Notes under the pieces: generated by a model
Database searches by the model: none
What the model was told of the DNA's origin: nothing
The model's input: only the letters and a program-made list of their open reading frames with translations
Program-made: the position numbers and the translations under genes
From: Candidatus Saccharimonadota bacterium
Lineage (GTDB): Bacteria > Patescibacteriota > Saccharimonadia > Saccharimonadales > JAXHMH01
Direction of reading: 5' to 3'
DNA length: 64,000 bases
NCBI GenBank assembly: GCA_034521515.1
Contig: JAXHMH010000002.1
Span: 216,379 to 280,378, forward strand
Shown here: positions 1 to 58,308 of the stretch, in pieces
How the letters are laid out: each line of letters starts with the position of its first letter
How positions within the stretch are numbered: position 1 is the stretch's first letter

Positions 1-205
<205 letters not shown>

Positions 206-230
206 AAAATGTTGAGCTCACTGCGATACA

Positions 231-7690: not shown

Positions 7691-10600
7691 CTAAGCCTCG
7701 TCCTGATTATGAAAGTTGCCTTCCTTATCTATATATATCGTGCTGTCGTGATCGTGTTGCGCAGAATCGCCTGATAGCTTAATTTCACCACCGTCTTTTT
7801 TTGGAGTAGACTCGTCTTTTATGGAGCTTCTGATTTCGTTAGCAATTGTAGAGACTTCCTGTTTTTCAATCTCATCACTTGAAATGTTCTGAGTCGAAGT
7901 ATCTGCAGCTTGCGGTTGGGGTTTTGGCTTAGCAGGTTTTGGCTGTGCTTGCGCTGGTGACTGCTGAGGCTGTTGTTGGGACGATTCCTTAGACATAGGT
8001 AGACTACTTTTTGCCGGCTGTATCTTCGGCGGAGAAGTGGTTTGTGTCGGTGCTGGTGTTGATGCGTTAGGTTTATTAGCACCCTGAGAAGCACCTGCCG
8101 GCGTTGCCGCTTTACGTTTTGCCAACCACTCATCCAGGAAAGAAGATCCCGATGCTGGCGGTTTCTGTGGTGTCGGACGACGTGGTTTTTGACCGAATGG
8201 CGACTGAGCAGCTGGCTGTCTTCCAGGTTGAGAACCAAACGCCGGCTTAGGCTCTTCTGTTGTGGCAAGTCGCTTAAATATCTCTTCTTCGGCCTTGGCT
8301 TTAGGTTTGCCATACTTAGCAGAAGACAGTTGTTTTAAGGCTTCTCCTAGCTGTGGGTTTGGCTTCCCCAGTGGTGGCAAAGTTGCCATACTAAACGGAT
8401 GCGTTGGCACACCACCAACCAAAGTTCGGATTATGGTGTTGAAGTTCGGAACCCGTAATAGATCCTCCGCATCAAATGCCGGCTGGAAATACTTAGAGAG
8501 CAAATCGACGTCATTTTGTCCAACTCGGAACGAAACAATTGTACCCATGTTCCCAAAAACGGCGTCCCTGATTTCCTCGCTTAACTGAGTCGTGAACTGG
8601 TTCGCAACTACTAGGTTAAGGTGGTACTTTCTGGCTTCTGACATGATTGTGGCAAATGAATCAGTCGAAAAATTCTGGAACTCATCAACATATAAACAAA
8701 AGTCCTTTCGGTCGGCTTCCGGTATATTTGCTCGACTCATAGCTGCCGCTTGGAATTTCATAACAAACACCATCCCAAGCAATTTGGAGTTTAGCTCGCC
8801 AGTCCTACCTTTGGTAAGGTTAACGATTAGGATTTTTTTGTTATCCATAATTTCACGCAAGTCAAACGCACTTTTGGTTTGGCCAATAATGTTACGCATC
8901 ATTTCATTACTTAAAAACGCACTAAACTTACTCACAAACCATCCCAGAATTTCGCTTTTATGATAATCACTGGTTTGAGCCATTTCTTTATTCCAAAAAT
9001 CTAGCACAGTTTTATCTTTTACATGCTTGAGTTTTTGTTTGACGTACTGATTATCGGTAAATACTTTTGGTATATCAATAAAGGTGGAGCCGTCAGGATC
9101 ACTCATAAGCGTCAGCGACGCATTACGAAACCAGTGTTCATAACGCGGCCCAATAATACCCTGGTGCAATGGATCATATAGCTTGTACAGCATGTTGATA
9201 GCCTCCTGGATAAGAAAGTCTTTTTGCTCCGGAGTATTAAATTCATACAGATTAAGTCCCATCGGATAATCCATATCAGCTGGGCAAAAATATACGACGT
9301 CTTCAGTGCGCTCCTTCGGAACCATAGACAGTAACCTTTCAGCGGTATCACCGTGCGGATCAATAAACGCAAATCCTTCACCACTCAACATATCCTGGAA
9401 AGCTAAATTTTCCAGAAATGTAGACTTACCTGTTCCGGTCTGACCAACAACATACATATGCCTTTGACGATCATTGAGGGCAAGCCTTATGGCTTTTTTG
9501 ACACCCCTGAAAATATTGTAGCCAAGCAAGAAACCTTCATCCGATATATTACGCGGACCATCCACCTGTTTAGATGCTTGTCGCTGAAGTTGTGAGGTCG
9601 GAATATTCTTCTGATCCGGGAAATGAAATAAGGTAGCAAGTTCAACAGAGTTGAGGATGTTTTTATTACTCTCCTGCGGGAAAAACCTAAGAATATACGC
9701 GGTCACAAACCGTTCTATATCTTTAGCGGGCGTGTATTTAAAGCCGTTTTTACCTTGAGCATCAAACAGTGAAAAAGCAGCAACCACATTACTTAAAATT
9801 GACTGCGCCCTGTGAGACACATTAGAAGAAGCAACAACTCGTATCATTACCTCGTATCCGGGATAACGCGTCTTGTCATCTATTGAATCAAGCACGTTCT
9901 GATCTAAGCTAGAAAGATCTGGCTTATCCGAACCCTTTTCATCCCCTTTTTCGTCGGGTGGTTTAACGAACGCCATGAATAACTGTCGAAACCACCAAAA
10001 TACACCATCGGAGCCCTTCTTGTTATCTTTACCTTTGCGTTTCTTGCCAGAAACACCACTGGCTTGTTTACGCCAACCAGGATCCGCAGGTCGTAGCAGA
10101 ATTTGTATACCGGCACCATCATCTTTATCTAATGTTGATAGTGCATTCAGCAATGATTGCATTGCATCGCGTTTCAGATCTTGATAAGTAGCTATCGGAT
10201 ACGCAAAATGCTCTTTGAGCGTTAATTCACCACCTATAGTGCCAGTTATCTTGCCTACAGGACTAAAAATATTGTGTTCATCAACCTCCTCTAGCCTCGC
10301 AGACGGATACGCACTAACTACCGCTTGCTTAACAACATCTACCAACACAACCGGTACAGCTGCATAAAAATGCACAAAACCATGGCTCCCCACTATCTCA
10401 AAAGCAAGGTGTCGCTGACCATAAAATTTACTTTTTAGACCTTTTTGCAGCGTGCTTGCAATAATGTTGTAGAGTACTTGTGCTTTAGATATGTTCTCGT
10501 CCACAATATCGCGCACATCACGACCACCAGAGTCTTCATCGTCACTTTGAGGAGGCAACTGTATGAGCAGAGGAACCATCTTGAGCCCCCTCTCAAAGTT

Positions 10601-15493: not shown

Positions 15494-15520
15494 TCTTCCG
15501 CCCTTAAAATATTTAAAAAA

Positions 15521-15544
15521 CCGCTCAACAGGGAGCGGTTTTTT
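15521..15544. terminator. Bidirectional intrinsic terminator (rplT on +, probably rnpB on -)
   Basis: CCGCTC-aacagg-GAGCGG flanked by an A-run on the left and a T-run on the right. Confidence 0.7.
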
Positions 15545-15548
15545 AAGT

Positions 15549-15649
15549 GTCAGCCCAGTAGTAGACTTTTGAGTTAGCGCGCTTTCGATGCAAACCTATT
15601 AGATTTCAGTTTTGCTGAAATCCTTCTCAAAAGCTCACTACTGGGTCAG
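15549..15649 (-). mobile_element. ~100-nt terminal-inverted-repeat hairpin element, copy 1 (MITE-like)
   Basis: GTCAG-CCCAGTAGTAGA...GCTCACTACTGGG-TCAG. The same termini are seen at 55974-56069. Flanked by TCAG/TCAG. Confidence 0.5.
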
Positions 15650-15675: not shown

Positions 15676-15742
15676 CCCCGCACCTTTTCGTGGCGACTTA
15701 TCAATCTGGTTGCAGACTGTTTCGCCCAGAAAAGGTGCGGGG
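15676..15742 (-). repeat. 66-67-nt hairpin module inside rnpB (P18 position)
   Basis: CCCCGCACC...CAGTCTG-CAAC-CAGATTG...GGTGCGGGG. Near-identical to 15915-15980. Confidence 0.75.
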
Positions 15743-15914: not shown

Positions 15915-15980
15915 CCCCGCACCACTTCAAGGTGCTAAACAATCTGGTTGCAAACTGTATCGCCCTGAAGTGGTGCGGGG
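15915..15980 (-). repeat. 66-nt hairpin module inside rnpB (P8/P9 position)
   Basis: CCCCGCACC...CAGTTTG-CAAC-CAGATTG...GGTGCGGGG. Paralogue of 15676-15742. Confidence 0.75.
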
Positions 15981-16165
15981 TAGTTTCGTTTCTGTGGCAC
16001 TTTCCCTAGGGTTGCCCCCGGTCGCCGTTAGCGACTGTCTTCCCCTTCGCTGCCCGGACTTTCCTCCCCCTCACCAGCTTTCAGGAGAACAAGCCTTGGC
16101 TTGCTTCTGCCTGGAAAGTGGTGAGGGGGCGATCGGCCGATAGTCTGACCTTTTTATTATATCAT

Positions 16166-16843
16166 CTACTTCTTAGATTCAGCGTCGAGAACCTCATTCA
16201 CTTCAGAATCTGCTAACTTATTTAGCTTACGAGGTACATGTGTAAAAGTAACGCTTTTAAACTGTTCAACCAGCTTTTTTATCGCTTCGTGAATTGGCCA
16301 TAAGTCCCGGTTTTTAACCTTAAAAATACCCTTCATCTGATTAACAACAAGCATGCTGTCCATATAGGCGTCAATTTCTTGAGCCCCAAGTTTTAGCGCT
16401 TCTTCAAGCCCCAGTTTAAGAGACTGATATTCCGCTTGATTGTTGGTAGTTATGCCAAGATATTCACCACTTTTCTTTATGACCGTATCGTCTAAATCAA
16501 GTAGTACATAACCGGATGCTGATGGGCCAGGATTCCCGCGAGAACCACCATCAGAATACATTTTTATGTGCTTATGCGTCTTGGGTTTACTGGAACTTTT
16601 TTTGCCCCCATCAGCCACCAAGTCAATGGCTTTGGCTAGACTTTTATCTTTATCTGTCACCTTACCTTCGGCCTCGTGGGTACTAAGCCAAATTTTCACC
16701 TTATTCCACTCATTCTCCCATCTTGGATGGTGTTGCTGTTTTTCTGCCTCTTCTGCTACCGCCTGCATAAAACTAAAAGCTTCGTTAAAATCTTTAAACT
16801 TAAACTCTTTATATAGCTGGTTGTTTGTTTCTTGCCATTTCAT
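16166..16843 (-). CDS. Fusion protein: pterin-4a-carbinolamine dehydratase (PCD/DCoH)-like domain + RNase HI domain
   Basis: N-terminus [61 protein letters not shown] (PCD signature). C-terminus [19 protein letters not shown]...NNQAEYQSL...DSMLVVNQM...NKLADS (RNase H D-E-D-D type). Confidence 0.75.
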
Positions 16844-32294: not shown

Positions 32295-32396
32295 TTTACT
32301 TGTCCTTTCTTGGTTTGTTTTACGTATTATAACAGATAAGAAGTGGTGACCCCAGCATGCGTCGCAAAATATAGCTGTCTGTTCTATAATAAGCGT

Positions 32397-32711
32397 ATGC
32401 CTAGTAGTGAGCTTTCTGTCGTGTTCTGTTACGTCTACGTGCTGCGTTCGCTTTCGAACGCCAGTTACTACGTAGGCTTCACTCATAACCTAAGGGGTTG
32501 CATAACAGAACACAACGCTGGCTTGAGTCCTTCCACTAAACCTTACCGTCCTTGGGAGATCCTGTATTATGAAGCACATAGGAGTGAAGAAGATGCCAGA
32601 CGACGAGAAAAATATCTCAAGACCAGCTCCGGCAAACAAGCGCTCAGAAGGATGATACGCAAACAACTATTATCGTCTGGCAACTCAAGCCAACAGAAAG
32701 GCTACAACTAG
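32397..32711 (+). CDS. Small GIY-YIG nuclease-domain protein (start trimmed to ATG 32397)
   Basis: CYVYVLRS...SYYVGFTHNL..R..EHN...ARRREKYLK (GIY-YIG core). TATAAT (32384-89) sits 7 nt before the ATG, so the transcript may be leaderless. Confidence 0.7.
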   Translation: MPSSELSVVFCYVYVLRSLSNASYYVGFTHNLRGCITEHNAGLSPSTKPYRPWEILYYEAHRSEEDARRREKYLKTSSGKQALRRMIRKQLLSSGNSSQQKGYN

Positions 32712-32713
32712 GT

Positions 32714-33622
32714 ATGCGATTTGAAAAAGCCAAAACTGATTTTTTAGAATATCTGGAGATTGAACAAAATCGCTCACAAAAAACCATTGCTAATTATGAC
32801 CATTATTTGACTCGTCTAGTTGATTTTGCCGGTGATATAAATGTCAGTGACATTAACCCAGAGCTTGTTCGCAAATGGCGGCTATGGCTCAATCGACTAG
32901 GTACCAATACGAGCGATGAGCTGCAAAAAACTACCCAAAATTACCACCTGATTGCCTTGCGCAGCTTTTTGAAATACTGCGCCAAACGAAATATTCCAGC
33001 GCTCACCGCCGATAAAATTGAGCTGGCACGCACCAAACGCAAACAAGTTACGTTCTTAACTGCCGAAGAAATTGAACAAATGTTCATGATGCCTAAGATT
33101 GAAACACTGCCAGGACTCCGCGATCGAGCTATCCTAGAGCTGTTGTTTTCATCTGGGTTACGTGTTTCTGAGCTGGTCGGACTCGATAAAGATCACGTTA
33201 ACCTCAAACGGCGTGAGTTTATGGTACGCGGTAAAGGCCAGAAAGACCGCCCGATTTTTATCAGTGAAGCTGCAGCGCACTGGGTGCAACAATATTTAGA
33301 CAAACGAACCGATACAACCAGACCCTTATTTATACGCTATAGTGGCAGCAAGCAAGTTGATACCAGTGGCAATTTCCACCGGCTTACGGCTCGCAGTATT
33401 CAGCGCATGGTCGCCCGCTACGCCCTGCTCGCCGGCATTACTAAACATGTTAGCCCGCATACACTTAGGCACTCCTTCGCAACTGATTTACTCATGAACG
33501 GCGCGGACTTGCGCTCTGTTCAGGCTATGCTAGGCCACAGCAACATATCCACCACACAAATATATACTCACGTCACTGACCCGCACCTAAAATCCGTCCA
33601 CGAAAAATTCCACCGCAAATAG
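32714..33622 (+). CDS. Tyrosine site-specific recombinase, XerC/XerD family
   Basis: SAM-like N-domain. Catalytic ...GLRVSEL..., HTLRHSFATDLL, GHSNISTTQIYTHV. Confidence 0.85.
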   Translation: MRFEKAKTDFLEYLEIEQNRSQKTIANYDHYLTRLVDFAGDINVSDINPELVRKWRLWLNRLGTNTSDELQKTTQNYHLIALRSFLKYCAKRNIPALTADKIELARTKRKQVTFLTAEEIEQMFMMPKIETLPGLRDRAILELLFSSGLRVSELVGLDKDHVNLKRREFMVRGKGQKDRPIFISEAAAHWVQQYLDKRTDTTRPLFIRYSGSKQVDTSGNFHRLTARSIQRMVARYALLAGITKHVSPHTLRHSFATDLLMNGADLRSVQAMLGHSNISTTQIYTHVTDPHLKSVHEKFHRK

Positions 33623-55483: not shown

Positions 55484-55897
55484 CTATGCCTCGTCGTTTT
55501 GATTGTCTGTGTCGTCACTTTTATCGCCGCGCTCAGCAGCTTTCTTGGCTTTATCTGCTTTGGCAGCTTCGGCCTTAGCAATTGCCTTGAGATCTGGACG
55601 GACAATCAAATAACGAATAACTTCGTCCGTTATGTTAAGATTGCTCTCAACTTTTTGTACACCCTCACCGGGCATTTCTACGGTGTAAAAAACGTAGACG
55701 GCGTGCTCTTGCTTGGCAATTGGATATGCCAACTTACGCTTACCCCAGTTATCGGTAGACTTTATAGTGCCGCCGTTATTGGTGATGATTTTTTTCACCC
55801 GCTCCTCTGCCTTGGTCAAATCGACCTCCAGATCAGGGTGATACAATACTGCAATTTCGTATTGGTTCAAGGTATTCCTCCTTTGGTTATAGCCCAC
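55484..55897 (-). CDS. rpsF: 30S ribosomal protein S6 (with a charged C-terminal extension)
   Basis: YEIAVLYHPDLEVD...; rpsF-ssb-rpsR order. Confidence 0.9.
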   Translation of the reverse strand: MGYNQRRNTLNQYEIAVLYHPDLEVDLTKAEERVKKIITNNGGTIKSTDNWGKRKLAYPIAKQEHAVYVFYTVEMPGEGVQKVESNLNITDEVIRYLIVRPDLKAIAKAEAAKADKAKKAAERGDKSDDTDNQNDEA

Positions 55898-55973
55898 ACG
55901 CTCATTCCGCTAGATGGCGAAGGCTGTGAACTGAGTTAATAGTGCGTGTATTGTACCTTAACTACCCCTGTTA

Positions 55974-56069
55974 GTCAACCCAGTAGTAGATCTTCGTGTA
56001 GACTCGCTAAAAGCGAGTCATTATCCTGACAAAGCCAGTATAGTCGCGAGGGCTCACTACTGGGTCAAC
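55974..56069 (-). mobile_element. ~96-nt terminal-inverted-repeat hairpin element, copy 2 (MITE-like)
   Basis: GTCAA-CCCAGTAGTAGA...GCTCACTACTGGG-TCAA. Flanked by TCAA/TCAA. Located between the ftsK stop and the rpsF start. Confidence 0.5.
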
Positions 56070-56103: not shown

Positions 56104-58308
56104 TTATTCTTCGGGGAAGTTTTCGTCGTAGACTTCATCATCAACGTTTGCAGAACTATCCGCTCCACCAAATACGTCATCGACTGAGCTAATCAACACT
56201 TCTCTTGGTCGCGAACCATCGGCTGGGCCTACAATGCCCTGCTCTTCCATGGTTTCAATTAAGCGAGCAGCTCGGCCGTAGCCAATCCTTAAGCGTCGCT
56301 GGAGTAGGCTGGTACTAGCTTTGCCGCCGTCTACTACCACCTTGATGGCATCCTTCCACATATCGTCATCGCTATCTTGAGCGCTAGCATCCATGACCAC
56401 ACCACCTTTACCGTTGAGTTGTACAGGTTGGCTAATAATCTCGTCGTCATAATCCGGTGGACGCTGCATGCGAATAAAGTCTGTGACCTTAATGGTCTCT
56501 TCATCAGATATAAAGGCGCCTTGTACGCGTTTTGGTTTTGGCATATCGGCAGTCAAGAGCAGCATGTCACCCTGGCCTAACAATTTTTCAGCACCTATCT
56601 GGTCGATGATTGTTCGACTATCCACCTGACTGGCGGTCGTAAAGGCAATCCGAGCAGGTATGTTAGCTTTTATAAGACCGGTTATTACGTCGACACTTGG
56701 TCGTTGCGTAGCCAATACAAGATGTATGCCAACGGCTCGCGCTTTTTGAGCGATCCGTACAATAAGGCTTTCTACATCCCTTGCGGCCATCATCATAAGG
56801 TCGGCTAGCTCATCGATAACTACAACTATATACGGCATACCTTCCTCTTTTTTAAGACTATTATACTCTGCGATATTACGACGGTTGGCATCTGCCAAAG
56901 CTTTATATCGACGCTCCATCTCAGCAACCGTCCACTTAAGCGCGCTAATGCACTTTTCTGGCTCTGTAATCAGGGGCGCAAGTAGGTGCGGGAGGTCGTC
57001 ATATGGTTTCAGTTCGACTTGCTTTGGGTCGACCAGTATAAGCTTTAGATCGGACGGGCTATTTCGGTACAAAAGACTGGTGAGAACAGCGTTAATCATA
57101 ACTGACTTACCTGACCCGGTCTGACCAGCTATCAGTACGTGCGGCATTTTTGCCAAATCGGCCACCATTGGTGTACCAGAAATATCTTTGCCTATAACAA
57201 AACTAAGTGGCCCCTGCATATCTTGCCACTCGCGAGATTGAAGAAGAGAGCTGATACGAACTGTAGCCGACTTAAGATTTGGTACTTCTATGCCGACTAA
57301 CCGTTTACCCGGAATAGGCGCCTCCATTCGTATAGAATGAGCTGCTAAATCAAGTGACAGATTGTTCTCAAGAGCCGTAATTTTTGTAAGCTTAACTCCT
57401 GTAGGTGGCTTTAGAGTATATTGCGTGACACGTGGTCCAATGTTAGCTCCTTCCATCTCGACATTAATATTAAAATTATTGAATGTCTCTTTGATATTCT
57501 CTGCGCTCCCCTCAACATCACCAGCATCAGCCTTGTCTTGTTTCTGATTGAGTAAGTTCATGCCCGGGAACTTCCAGTTCGGATCACTCTCAGTAGTCAA
57601 AGCTTCGTGACTTTCGTTTGGTGAGAGCTTCTGAGCGGTGTTTCTAAATGTACTCAGCCTGGCTTTTTCACGGTCAGCCTGTCGTTCAACTGGAACACCT
57701 TCATTAAGCTTGAAACTGTTTTCCTCCGTTGCCTTAGATTTTAGCTCGGCTAGGTCGGTGTCAGTTTCTTTACGTTTAAACAAATCGCCGATCTTTAAAA
57801 AGACCTTGAGTGATATACCAAACGTCAGGCAAAAAGCCAGCACCGTCAGGACAACCCAAAGTATAATGGCGGGAATTTTATCCAGTACAGAAAGCATCAT
57901 CCCACCGATAACCATACCTACTTCTCCGCCTCGTCCGTTAACGTACTCAGAAACGGGTGTAGAACGAGTTGCAAAAGAGACGTGCAGTAGCGCGGAGCTA
58001 CTCACCAACAAGGCCGTTATACTCATAAGTTTGTCTAGCGGTGTACGATGATCGTCGCTGCGAAACTTATGAACACCGATGTATATCAAAGCAACCGGCG
58101 TTATGTAAGCTCCCCAGCCAAACAACCAATACGCACCACCAAATAATGACTCGGGTAGTATGCCGCCGGTGCCAAAACCGCCGATAAGCAGAAACACCGC
58201 TATCACTAGCATGATTACTGCGCCTGCTTGCGGCCAAAAAACTGATCGCTGCTTTGGTACAGGATTGGTTTTTTTATTTCTTGTTTGTTTTTTCTTCTTT
58301 TTAGCCAT
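56104..58308 (-). CDS. ftsK: DNA translocase FtsK
   Basis: N-terminal 4 TM, GQTGSGKS, VVVIDELADLMM, gamma wHTH LLQRRLRIGYGRAARLIE. Confidence 0.92.
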   Translation of the reverse strand: MAKKKKKQTRNKKTNPVPKQRSVFWPQAGAVIMLVIAVFLLIGGFGTGGILPESLFGGAYWLFGWGAYITPVALIYIGVHKFRSDDHRTPLDKLMSITALLVSSSALLHVSFATRSTPVSEYVNGRGGEVGMVIGGMMLSVLDKIPAIILWVVLTVLAFCLTFGISLKVFLKIGDLFKRKETDTDLAELKSKATEENSFKLNEGVPVERQADREKARLSTFRNTAQKLSPNESHEALTTESDPNWKFPGMNLLNQKQDKADAGDVEGSAENIKETFNNFNINVEMEGANIGPRVTQYTLKPPTGVKLTKITALENNLSLDLAAHSIRMEAPIPGKRLVGIEVPNLKSATVRISSLLQSREWQDMQGPLSFVIGKDISGTPMVADLAKMPHVLIAGQTGSGKSVMINAVLTSLLYRNSPSDLKLILVDPKQVELKPYDDLPHLLAPLITEPEKCISALKWTVAEMERRYKALADANRRNIAEYNSLKKEEGMPYIVVVIDELADLMMMAARDVESLIVRIAQKARAVGIHLVLATQRPSVDVITGLIKANIPARIAFTTASQVDSRTIIDQIGAEKLLGQGDMLLLTADMPKPKRVQGAFISDEETIKVTDFIRMQRPPDYDDEIISQPVQLNGKGGVVMDASAQDSDDDMWKDAIKVVVDGGKASTSLLQRRLRIGYGRAARLIETMEEQGIVGPADGSRPREVLISSVDDVFGGADSSANVDDEVYDENFPEE

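Follow-up and report, generated by a model that had tools for sequence, protein, structure and literature searches.

Two hairpin elements beside rnpB and rpsF

We analysed a window of 64,000 nucleotides (nt) from Candidatus Saccharimonadota bacterium (assembly GCA_034521515.1, contig JAXHMH010000002.1), in which two short hairpin-forming elements lie beside rnpB, the RNase P RNA gene, and rpsF, respectively. Both lack an open reading frame (ORF) and are referred to here as minis. An initial annotation, made from the sequence alone, had described two hairpins with common 12-nt termini, unrelated interiors and flanking direct repeats, and had likened them to miniature inverted-repeat transposable elements (MITEs). 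The description proved accurate and the coordinates were confirmed. The features of the two sites are as follows.

15513–15546: hairpin with T-runs, terminator for rplT (plus strand) and rnpB (minus strand)
15550–15553: left target-site duplication of copy 1, TCAG, read directly; a single YCAG stands here in relatives L169–L171
15554–15645: copy 1, ORF-less hairpin element of 92 nt, from sequence and fold
15646–15649: TCAG again, the right-hand target-site duplicate of copy 1, whose minus-strand reading CUGA makes up the final four paired bases in the 3' strand of rnpB P1
15642–16148, minus strand: rnpB, by Rfam match
55950–55978, minus strand: promoter-like site of rpsF-ssb-rpsR, TTGACT, 17 nt, TACAAT (10/12 matches)
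55975–55978: TCAA, the left-hand target-site duplicate of copy 2, whose minus-strand reading TTGA forms bases 1–4 of the rpsF -35 hexamer TTGACT
55979–56064: copy 2, ORF-less hairpin element of 86 nt, with the architecture of copy 1
56065–56068: right target-site duplication of copy 2, TCAA; a single TTGA in relatives L164 and L166

On the plus strand both minis have the ends CCCAGTAGTAGA...GCTCACTACTGGG (CCCAGTAGTGAGCTTTTGAG...CTCAAAAGTCTACTACTGGG on the minus strand), sharing termini of 12–13 nt. The exact terminal 12-mer has no other occurrence in the window, and a broader inverted-repeat scan of the window revealed no further copy; weak terminus matches at 8366/8606 and 46226/46449 were rejected as chance, being coding sequence without element structure. 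Copy 1 has 20-nt inverted arms that form a 9-bp stem, a three-position mismatch (positions 10–12) and an 8-bp stem, and that close a three-way junction with two hairpins. Its GAG-first arm is on the minus strand and corresponds to the ORF-sense arm of the full-length Saccharibacteria elements described below. The interiors of the two copies are unalignable. Compared with shuffled sequences, both whole elements fold with a z-score of about -6.5 on either strand and the interiors alone with z-scores of -2.3 and -4.7, bearing out the claim that each interior folds back on itself.

Copy 1 adjoins the 3' strand of rnpB P1, as the initial annotation had stated. In the Rfam alignment of P1, 5'-UCAGACUAUC pairs with GAUAAUCUGA-3' and the helix ends exactly at CUGA, so that the mature rnpB RNA ends at the duplicated 4-mer. 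The mini is placed between the last P1 pair and the terminator, with rplT upstream on the plus strand, and, wedged in this way between the mature 3' end and the terminator, it is probably transcribed as a 3' trailer of the RNase P RNA. Three relatives (L169–L171) have L20 proteins 80–81% identical and keep the gene order comM-infC-rpmI-rplT-rnpB(-)-RNase H, with the terminator directly 3' of rnpB. Their site reads terminator, (a)gtg, YCAG, (a/g)ttatc..taagccggg, with one YCAG and no element, and the filled site of the window reads aagtgTCAG, element, TCAGattatctataagccggg.

Copy 2 does lie between ftsK and rpsF, as claimed, with the ftsK stop at 56104 and the rpsF start (TTG) at 55870. It duplicates the TTGA with which the -35 hexamer begins, and the rpsF -35 is thereby rebuilt. 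The insertion thus appears to part the -35 box from upstream DNA while keeping the hexamer intact. Relatives L164 and L166, with S6 proteins 88–90% identical, carry this promoter uninterrupted by an element and with a single TTGA; the empty site reads ctagTTGACTAACAGGGGTA...TAGAAT in L166 and the filled site gtagTTGA, element, TTGACTAACAGGGGTA...TACAAT in the window. Empty sites in relatives, proposed as a check, are therefore present for both window copies, each with a single 4-mer.

A family of minis across the candidate phyla radiation

A terminus scan of one genome per species placed the same termini at 82 genome loci, several genomes having more than one copy. Nearly all these loci belong to the candidate phyla radiation (CPR; Patescibacteria), namely to Saccharibacteria, Parcubacteria, Paceibacterota, Wolfebacteria and Zambryskiibacteria. 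Among the further copies, too, the flanking 4-mers are duplicated and vary between copies. Of the 84 distinct copies, 52 lie between exact 4-nt direct repeats, compared to 3.4 expected when the right flanks were permuted (maximum 9), which upholds the proposal that the flanking 4-mers are target-site duplications; seven more copies have 5-nt repeats, and in 13 three of the four positions match. Twenty different 4-mers are duplicated. Across the 84 copies their consensus is YWWR, with a weak G before and a weak C after, making the target weakly palindromic. Duplications of this kind are what staggered cuts leave behind at a target with a loose sequence requirement. Examples from among the filled and predicted empty junctions are ...gtagTTGActaacagggg and ...aagtgTCAGattatc.

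The minis are 72–101 nt long, multi-copy and mostly intergenic, with no coding capacity. Arm positions 1–9 and 13–20 pair in 94–100% of 85 minis. Positions 13–20 are paired in 94–99% with three to four pair types each, pairing ends abruptly at position 21, and RNAalifold reports five compensatory pairs. Beyond the arms, 71 of the 85 form a three-way junction with two short hairpins. MAFFT alignment followed by RNAalifold recovered only the two outer stems, and interior structure was therefore measured sequence by sequence; the interiors alone have a median z-score of -3.9 though they are unalignable. Orientation relative to the neighbouring genes shows no clear bias under crude ORF calling (18 same/same, 15 opposite/opposite, 13 and 9 mixed).

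Insertion is also visible within the family. In a Paceibacterota genome a mini with a TCTA duplication sits inside a same-family element of ~190 nt whose paralogous outer copy is unfilled, and a Wolfebacteria contig has two tandem elements with one shared TTGA. Minis L008 and L074 have flanks in common and similar interiors, and represent an old mini kept at the same site in related species. Five minis (L008, L025, L040, L042 and L074) are followed 1–6 nt 3' by an extended -10 box (TGnTAtAAT) and have 5-nt duplications such as TGCTA, and the L027 and L070 minis duplicate the TTGA of TTGACA; surviving insertions thus often lie inside promoters with the hexamers intact.

The initial annotation had said that its proposal would fall if just two copies existed with the same hairpins at orthologous loci, or if further copies were without flanking repeats; we find many copies, with duplications, and related loci that are empty. 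With the nested and tandem insertions, and with the ORF-bearing partner described next, the MITE-like reading gains support throughout, and by comparison with the relatives the two window hairpins are almost certainly insertions of a mobile element family.

Several further copies merit description. The minis at L037 1937–2019, L073 266–351 and L079 4350–4435 and 5082–5166 (the last two 730 nt apart) are in unrelated contexts and agree over 12 nt to the left and ~16 nt to the right of the insertion (TGCAAGCATAAG and TAAGCACCTCTG, respectively), suggesting either a repeated preferred target or a slightly larger copied unit. That L037 and L073/L079 are orthologous sites with one hairpin replaced was rejected, the alignment sharing only the 12 + 16 nt of flank. 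At L023 (4–77 and 129–809, Paceibacterota) an element lies close behind ftsK, as it does in the window, and 9 nt past the stop codon; this is probably a coincidence. An identical element with identical flanks is found in L044 760–835, a metagenome-assembled genome (MAG) labelled Elusimicrobia, and in L077 3297–3371, a Parcubacteria MAG; L012 and L061, labelled Gammaproteobacteria, also have the element. Such non-CPR-labelled carriers are probably mis-binned CPR contigs, otherwise cases of recent transfer.

A full-length element encoding a GIY-YIG nuclease

No element of 0.7–3 kb bounded by the mini termini was present in the genome-collection loci and the window (about 620 kb), where solo terminus matches were chance or the 16S 'GGACTACTGGG' site. 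The route to a partner was the tandem Wolfebacteria pair, the longer member of which holds an ORF for a GIY-YIG nuclease; a tblastn search with that ORF matched the window, at the following features.

32396–32399, plus strand: left target-site duplication TATG, which supplies the ATG of the GIY-YIG ORF
32397–32711, plus strand: GIY-YIG nuclease ORF, 104 residues (Pfam PF01541, E 1e-14)
32400–32712, plus strand: full-length element of 313 bp, CCTAGTAGTGAGCTTTCTGT...ACAGAAAGGCTACAACTAGG, with 20-nt inverted arms matching at 16/20 positions
32713–32716, plus strand: right target-site duplication TATG, which supplies the ATG (32714) of the xerC/D-like gene
32714–33622: xerC/D-like host gene, with its ATG from the right duplicate

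The 20-nt arms of the 313-bp element are the same as those of the minis, and they encode parts of the nuclease, namely the N-terminal MPSSELS and the last codons with the TAG stop. PF01541 is the sole domain of the 104-residue protein. In L033, whose XerC is 80% identical, the start of the xerC gene reads taagcaTATGagc without an element. The xerC-like recombinase was rejected as the mobiliser, since this host gene occurs without the element in L033 and the downstream genes differ at other full-length copies. The initial annotation had seen no transposase in the window. For classical transposases this stands (none in a Pfam survey of about 50 ORFs), but the ORF-bearing relative at 32400–32712 had been missed. 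Likewise, the search that it suggested for a cognate transposase or TnpB/IS200-type gene did lead to an ORF-bearing partner, although the enzyme is a GIY-YIG nuclease and neither TnpB/IS200-type nor classical.

Design and distribution of the GIY-YIG cassettes

A word-indexed search found 209 related proteins at E 1e-3 or better, most of them exactly 104 residues long, and 3,906 cluster representatives (50% identity) reach E 1e-10. The conserved ends of the protein family, MPSSELS and QKVYY*, are arm-encoded, and Y12, Y25, R35, E59 and E71 are invariant or nearly so in the family alignment. The nearest solved structures by sequence are the UPF0213 proteins BH0048 and EF2693 (PDB 1zg2 and 1ywl), then the structure-specific nuclease SLX1; NCBIfam and PHROGs gave no match for the nuclease.

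We examined 80 metagenomic GIY-YIG loci, which yielded 59 distinct elements with detected arms. Inverted arms of 20 nt, with the pattern CCNNGTAGT + GA/AG + A.TT...., enclose about 70 of the 80 genes, the elements being 305–325 bp long with the GIY-YIG gene as the only gene; the design of the window element recurs in L047, L084–L087 and others. An exact 4-nt duplication flanks 44 of the 59 distinct elements (TATG 23, TGGA 7, TGAA 4, ATGA 3; GTTG, TAGG, AAAG, AAAA, TACG, TTTA and TGAT once each). In most intact full-length copies the insertion point coincides exactly with the start codon of a host gene. The nuclease ORF begins in the left duplicate, behind the ribosome-binding site of the host, and a few bases past the nuclease stop codon the right duplicate gives the host gene its ATG back; a downstream ORF of at least 50 codons has its ATG at the right junction in 40 of the 59. 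The register on the start codon varies by subfamily (TATG/, A/TGGA and /ATGA, with the slash at the junction), which suggests that such sites are selected for expression and for tolerance by the host, as opposed to one sequence being recognised.

In an unbiased set of 49 distinct full-length arm pairs, the two arms differ at positions 10–11 in every pair, and elsewhere they nearly always agree. What differs is nearly always GA against AG, swapped one way or the other relative to the ORF, so that the folded strand and its complement would each carry a tandem G.T/A.C mismatch. An invariant mismatch is hard to explain by two equivalent double-strand sites and would fit recognition of a foldback, whether hairpin or cruciform.

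Terminus classes go together: minis, also those of other classes, are co-located with full-length elements of their own class, beside or inside them, in L132, L125, L111, L113 (nested), L066, L047 and the window; in L132 both are of type TCCCGTAGTAGAATTT, and in L125 both are of the unusual GTAGAG type. From this comparison of arms and termini, the window hairpins are very probably the ORF-less form of the GIY-YIG cassette family. That the minis are deletion derivatives of ORF-bearing elements was rejected, the similarity seen by eye to the GIY-YIG ORF element being only about 16–17 nt at each end. In L066 (4470–4545) real bases are interspersed with N over the 5' portion of the GIY-YIG ORF, leaving the start codon and the left subterminal region unreadable.

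A possible second terminus class in an oversized rnpB

The rnpB gene itself is long, at 507 nt in the window versus 349–371 nt in three relatives. Compared with the Rfam model it has three extra hairpins (15676–15742, 15915–15980 and 16067–16128), two of which are alike (CCCCGCACC...CAATCTGGTTGCA(G/A)ACTGT...GGTGCGGGG). Two are entered tentatively as a second class.

15676–15742: tentative second-class hairpin (CCCCGCACCTTTTC...GAAAAGGTGCGGGG) inside rnpB
15915–15980: tentative second-class hairpin (CCCCGCACCACTTCA...TGAAGTGGTGCGGGG) at the tip of rnpB P12

The 14-nt termini CCCCGCACCTTTTC and GAAAAGGTGCGGGG also bracket a GIY-YIG pseudogene at L026 1446–1742, and rnpB may therefore harbour a second terminus class of GIY-YIG-type element. 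Around the second-class rnpB hairpins no target duplication is visible. L026 (1319–1742) presents a cluster of the two element classes, in which just TTT parts a CCCAGTAGT-type element of 123 nt from the CCCCGCACC-type GIY-YIG element, and a direct repeat of the 3' end of the GIY-YIG ORF lies upstream.

Comparison with known mobile elements and nuclease-repeat systems

Bacterial MITEs such as Correia, RUP and ERIC derive from insertion sequence (IS) elements of the DDE type, and their copies within a genome usually share an interior. The minis resemble them in size (about 70–150 bp), terminal inverted repeats, a short duplication, the lack of an ORF, hairpin formation, intergenic placement and the potential to alter promoters or transcripts. 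They differ in having a partner that encodes the GIY-YIG protein only, interiors that are unalignable yet form three-way junctions, and an invariant tandem mismatch in the arms of the family. The autonomous partner expected of a MITE does exist with the same termini, but its only ORF is the GIY-YIG nuclease, which is putative as a transposase. Classical DDE insertion sequences with 4-bp duplications (e.g. IS5, IS1380) likewise differ from the CPR ORF-bearing elements, which are about 310 bp long and encode the GIY-YIG protein only in genomes sampled in windows. IS200/IS605 and REP/RAYT elements, which move by HUH Y1 chemistry, enter the DNA beside a specific tetra- or pentanucleotide and leave no target duplication. 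Folded, mismatched hairpins as recognition elements and a very small enzyme would be common ground with the CPR family, but the CPR elements have a 4-bp duplication and a GIY-YIG ORF. GIY-YIG homing endonucleases (I-TevI, T4 Seg) have an added DNA-binding domain and a long specific target, and rely on homologous repair into the same allele. They too are selfish GIY-YIG nuclease genes spreading in genomes; however, the CPR target is about 4–6 degenerate bases (YWWR or ATG), flanks and downstream genes differ between copies, and the CPR elements have the inverted repeats and target duplications that homing genes lack.

Of the systems described so far, the Ssn nucleases with their NTS/SRM hairpin repeats come closest. 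The N. meningitidis enzyme SsnA, a single-domain GIY-YIG protein of 94 residues, binds the NTS hairpin repeat only as single-stranded DNA (ssDNA) (PMC11893778) and cuts a few nt upstream of it, in variable sequence (Chenal et al., Nat Commun 2025, PMC11893778). Most ssn genes are repeat-flanked, and the authors note the insertion-sequence look of this arrangement and show no transposition (PMC11893778); CPR bacteria are not mentioned in that paper (PMC11893778). In outline the two systems work alike: both have a single-domain GIY-YIG protein of about 94–104 residues, a gene with cognate repeats on either side, and ORF-less repeats that are scattered and mostly intergenic. The hairpin-guided cutting by SsnA sets a direct precedent for cutting at the boundary of an element. 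The CPR flanking repeats, in contrast, are no self-contained hairpins but inverse copies that pair with each other across the element, whereas each Ssn repeat is its own hairpin of 20–50 nt. Insertion is documented for the CPR elements by 4-bp duplications, empty sites, nesting and placement on start codons, whereas mobility of NTS-ssnA-NTS is a hypothesis only. The nearest solved relatives found for the CPR nuclease were UPF0213 proteins. GIY-YIG genes without GTAGT-type arms are found near minis at L055 236–418, with a local hairpin (TCCTCCGAAGC...GCGAAGGAGGA) just upstream of the ORF, and at L005 1674–1865. CPR genomes thus contain other GIY-YIG architectures as well, perhaps closer to Ssn.

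A survey of CPR rRNA genes reported GIY-YIG ORFs within insertions that are neither introns nor homing-like, together with many short insertions left unexplained (J Bacteriol 2024, PMC11270868); the main text of that report does not mention inverted repeats, direct repeats or hairpins (PMC11270868). These rRNA insertions and the present elements are probably the same family, which we predict to be the obvious candidate for both kinds of insertion. In the literature, our coverage of which is incomplete, we found no description of a GIY-YIG element with inverted repeats and target duplications, nor of MITEs in CPR bacteria.

Proposed mechanism and rival explanations

Taken as a whole, we hold with considerable confidence that the window hairpins are mobile insertions belonging to the GIY-YIG cassette family. 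They are non-autonomous, and the family is one of very small inverted-repeat transposable elements across CPR lineages. We lean, somewhat past even odds, towards the GIY-YIG nuclease itself mobilising the elements. In such a mechanism the nuclease would act in trans on the minis, would recognise the two arms folded back on each other, be it in a single-strand hairpin or in a cruciform, with the mismatch for a landmark (the related Ssn nucleases recognise single-stranded hairpins), and would cut the target with a 4-nt stagger. Joining and gap filling would be done by host enzymes, the joining being left to them because GIY-YIG chemistry is hydrolytic.

Several points weigh against this reading. 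GIY-YIG nucleases hydrolyse DNA, and to our knowledge they have no strand-transfer activity, nor do we know of a joining agent. Mobility and the role of the nuclease rest on sequence comparison, the latter as an interpretation of it. Genomes were sampled as 8-kb windows around matches, leaving room for an unlinked transposase. Because the full-length loci were found via intact ORFs the sample is biased, and the enrichment for start codons may partly reflect the search. The full-length element of the window has CCTAG termini and two right-arm mismatches compared with CCCAG in the minis, so it may not be the current mobiliser of both. With no interior sequence in common, neither window mini is a recent copy of the other, and some insertions in the family are old enough to be common to different species. 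Lastly, the strand bias of the fold is weak (176 vs 97 G.U pairs, p = 0.017), favouring the Saccharibacteria ORF-sense strand.

Four rival explanations were weighed. If the nuclease-repeat pairs were a domesticated system of the Ssn/NTS type, the hairpins would be genomic recognition sites of the single-strand nuclease with a host function, such as controlling incoming ssDNA in naturally competent CPR bacteria, and their spread would be historical. The parallel architecture, the old minis kept at one site in L008 and L074, interiors that remain structured, and window minis that are not recent copies of each other all suit this proposal. It has to contend with the Ssn repeat consensus (HGTCWY..YYVSBRH..WNVSBRG..RNCYNB), which has 0 matches in the window versus a mean of 0.27 in shuffles, with arms that pair across the whole element and not as short hairpins of their own, with a low copy number (two minis in 64 kb), and with duplications, empty sites and nesting, an insertion behaviour only hypothesised for Ssn. 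We regard it as unlikely; moreover, it is compatible with mobilisation by the nuclease and is no true replacement for it. A shade less probable again is that these are ordinary MITEs moved in trans by an unlinked classical DDE transposase acting on the 20-bp inverted repeats, with the GIY-YIG gene as a passenger, e.g. a selfish hitch-hiker. Inverted repeats, a duplication of fixed length and a palindromic target consensus are DDE hallmarks, and the hydrolytic chemistry noted above speaks on the same side. Yet every ORF-bearing element found carries the GIY-YIG gene only, at a uniform ~310 bp and with arms that overlap its first and last codons; neither a transposase domain in the 64-kb window nor a longer element with these termini in the sampled CPR DNA came to light, and the universal GA/AG mismatch is unexpected for a symmetric double-strand binding site.

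The remaining two proposals are far less probable. The initial annotation had offered, as its own alternative, functional RNA hairpins (3'-end, processing or RNase recognition) conserved by the host. The location of copy 1, in the 3' trailer of rnpB, and that of copy 2, in the leader or trailer part of an mRNA, are consistent with such a role, a 20-bp stem would be an RNase III substrate, and the stems covary and fold slightly better on the strand transcribed here. As an origin for the elements the proposal finds no support, being refuted by the relatives that have the same gene order and no hairpin at both sites; in addition, copies occur in every context and orientation to the neighbouring genes with no T-run 3' of them, the minis have no relevant Rfam match at gathering score or at E up to 10, and variable flanking duplications have no explanation at the RNA level. 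We consider it highly improbable. Slimmest of all is the prospect that an HUH (Y1) transposase moves the hairpins as single-strand elements of REP-like or IS200/IS605 type: the minis are hairpin-forming, repeated and mostly extragenic, with structure conserved more than interior sequence, but they make the target duplications that IS200/IS605 and REP/RAYT elements do not, and the window contains neither a Y1 transposase nor TnpB, the associated ORF being the GIY-YIG nuclease.

Other features of the window

The window begins inside the 5' end of a 16S rRNA gene (1–207, minus strand). Beside rnpB, a gene at 16166–16843 (minus strand) encodes a pterin-4a-carbinolamine dehydratase fused to RNase H/RVT_3, where relatives have ASCH + RNase H. 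The only other contig with an identical L20, L083 (Logan contig, 2935 bp), breaks off at the terminator that immediately precedes copy 1, 41 nt beyond the rplT stop codon, perhaps because the hairpin repeat interrupted the assembly.

Implications

It is an even call whether the fuller reading holds, in which a single-domain GIY-YIG nuclease of ~100 residues is alone the transposase of a new class of prokaryotic transposon, of which, at about 313 bp, it would be the smallest autonomous example. In this reading the element would land on start codons, use the promoter and ribosome-binding site of the host and return the ATG to the host gene, and its minis would have seeded CPR genomes, among their sites promoters and the RNase P RNA gene, and probably the rRNA genes with their unexplained insertions. 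If the nuclease does mobilise the elements, prokaryotic transposition would gain a new enzymatic class besides the DDE, HUH, serine, tyrosine and Cas1-type enzymes, and one housed in just ~313 bp. As for the insertion-sequence hypothesis of the Ssn authors, the target duplications, the empty sites and the nested copy are evidence of the kind that it calls for. In practice, the mini hairpins should be annotated as repeats, not as small RNAs or terminators, and they may break assemblies. The many terminus classes, apparently paired with many nuclease variants, would amount to a library of small structure- and sequence-specific nucleases. For CPR biology, the GIY-YIG family offers an explanation for the insertions in rRNA genes and for the oversized RNase P RNA gene, and its start-codon design would be a means of low-damage insertion in genomes that are about 90% coding.

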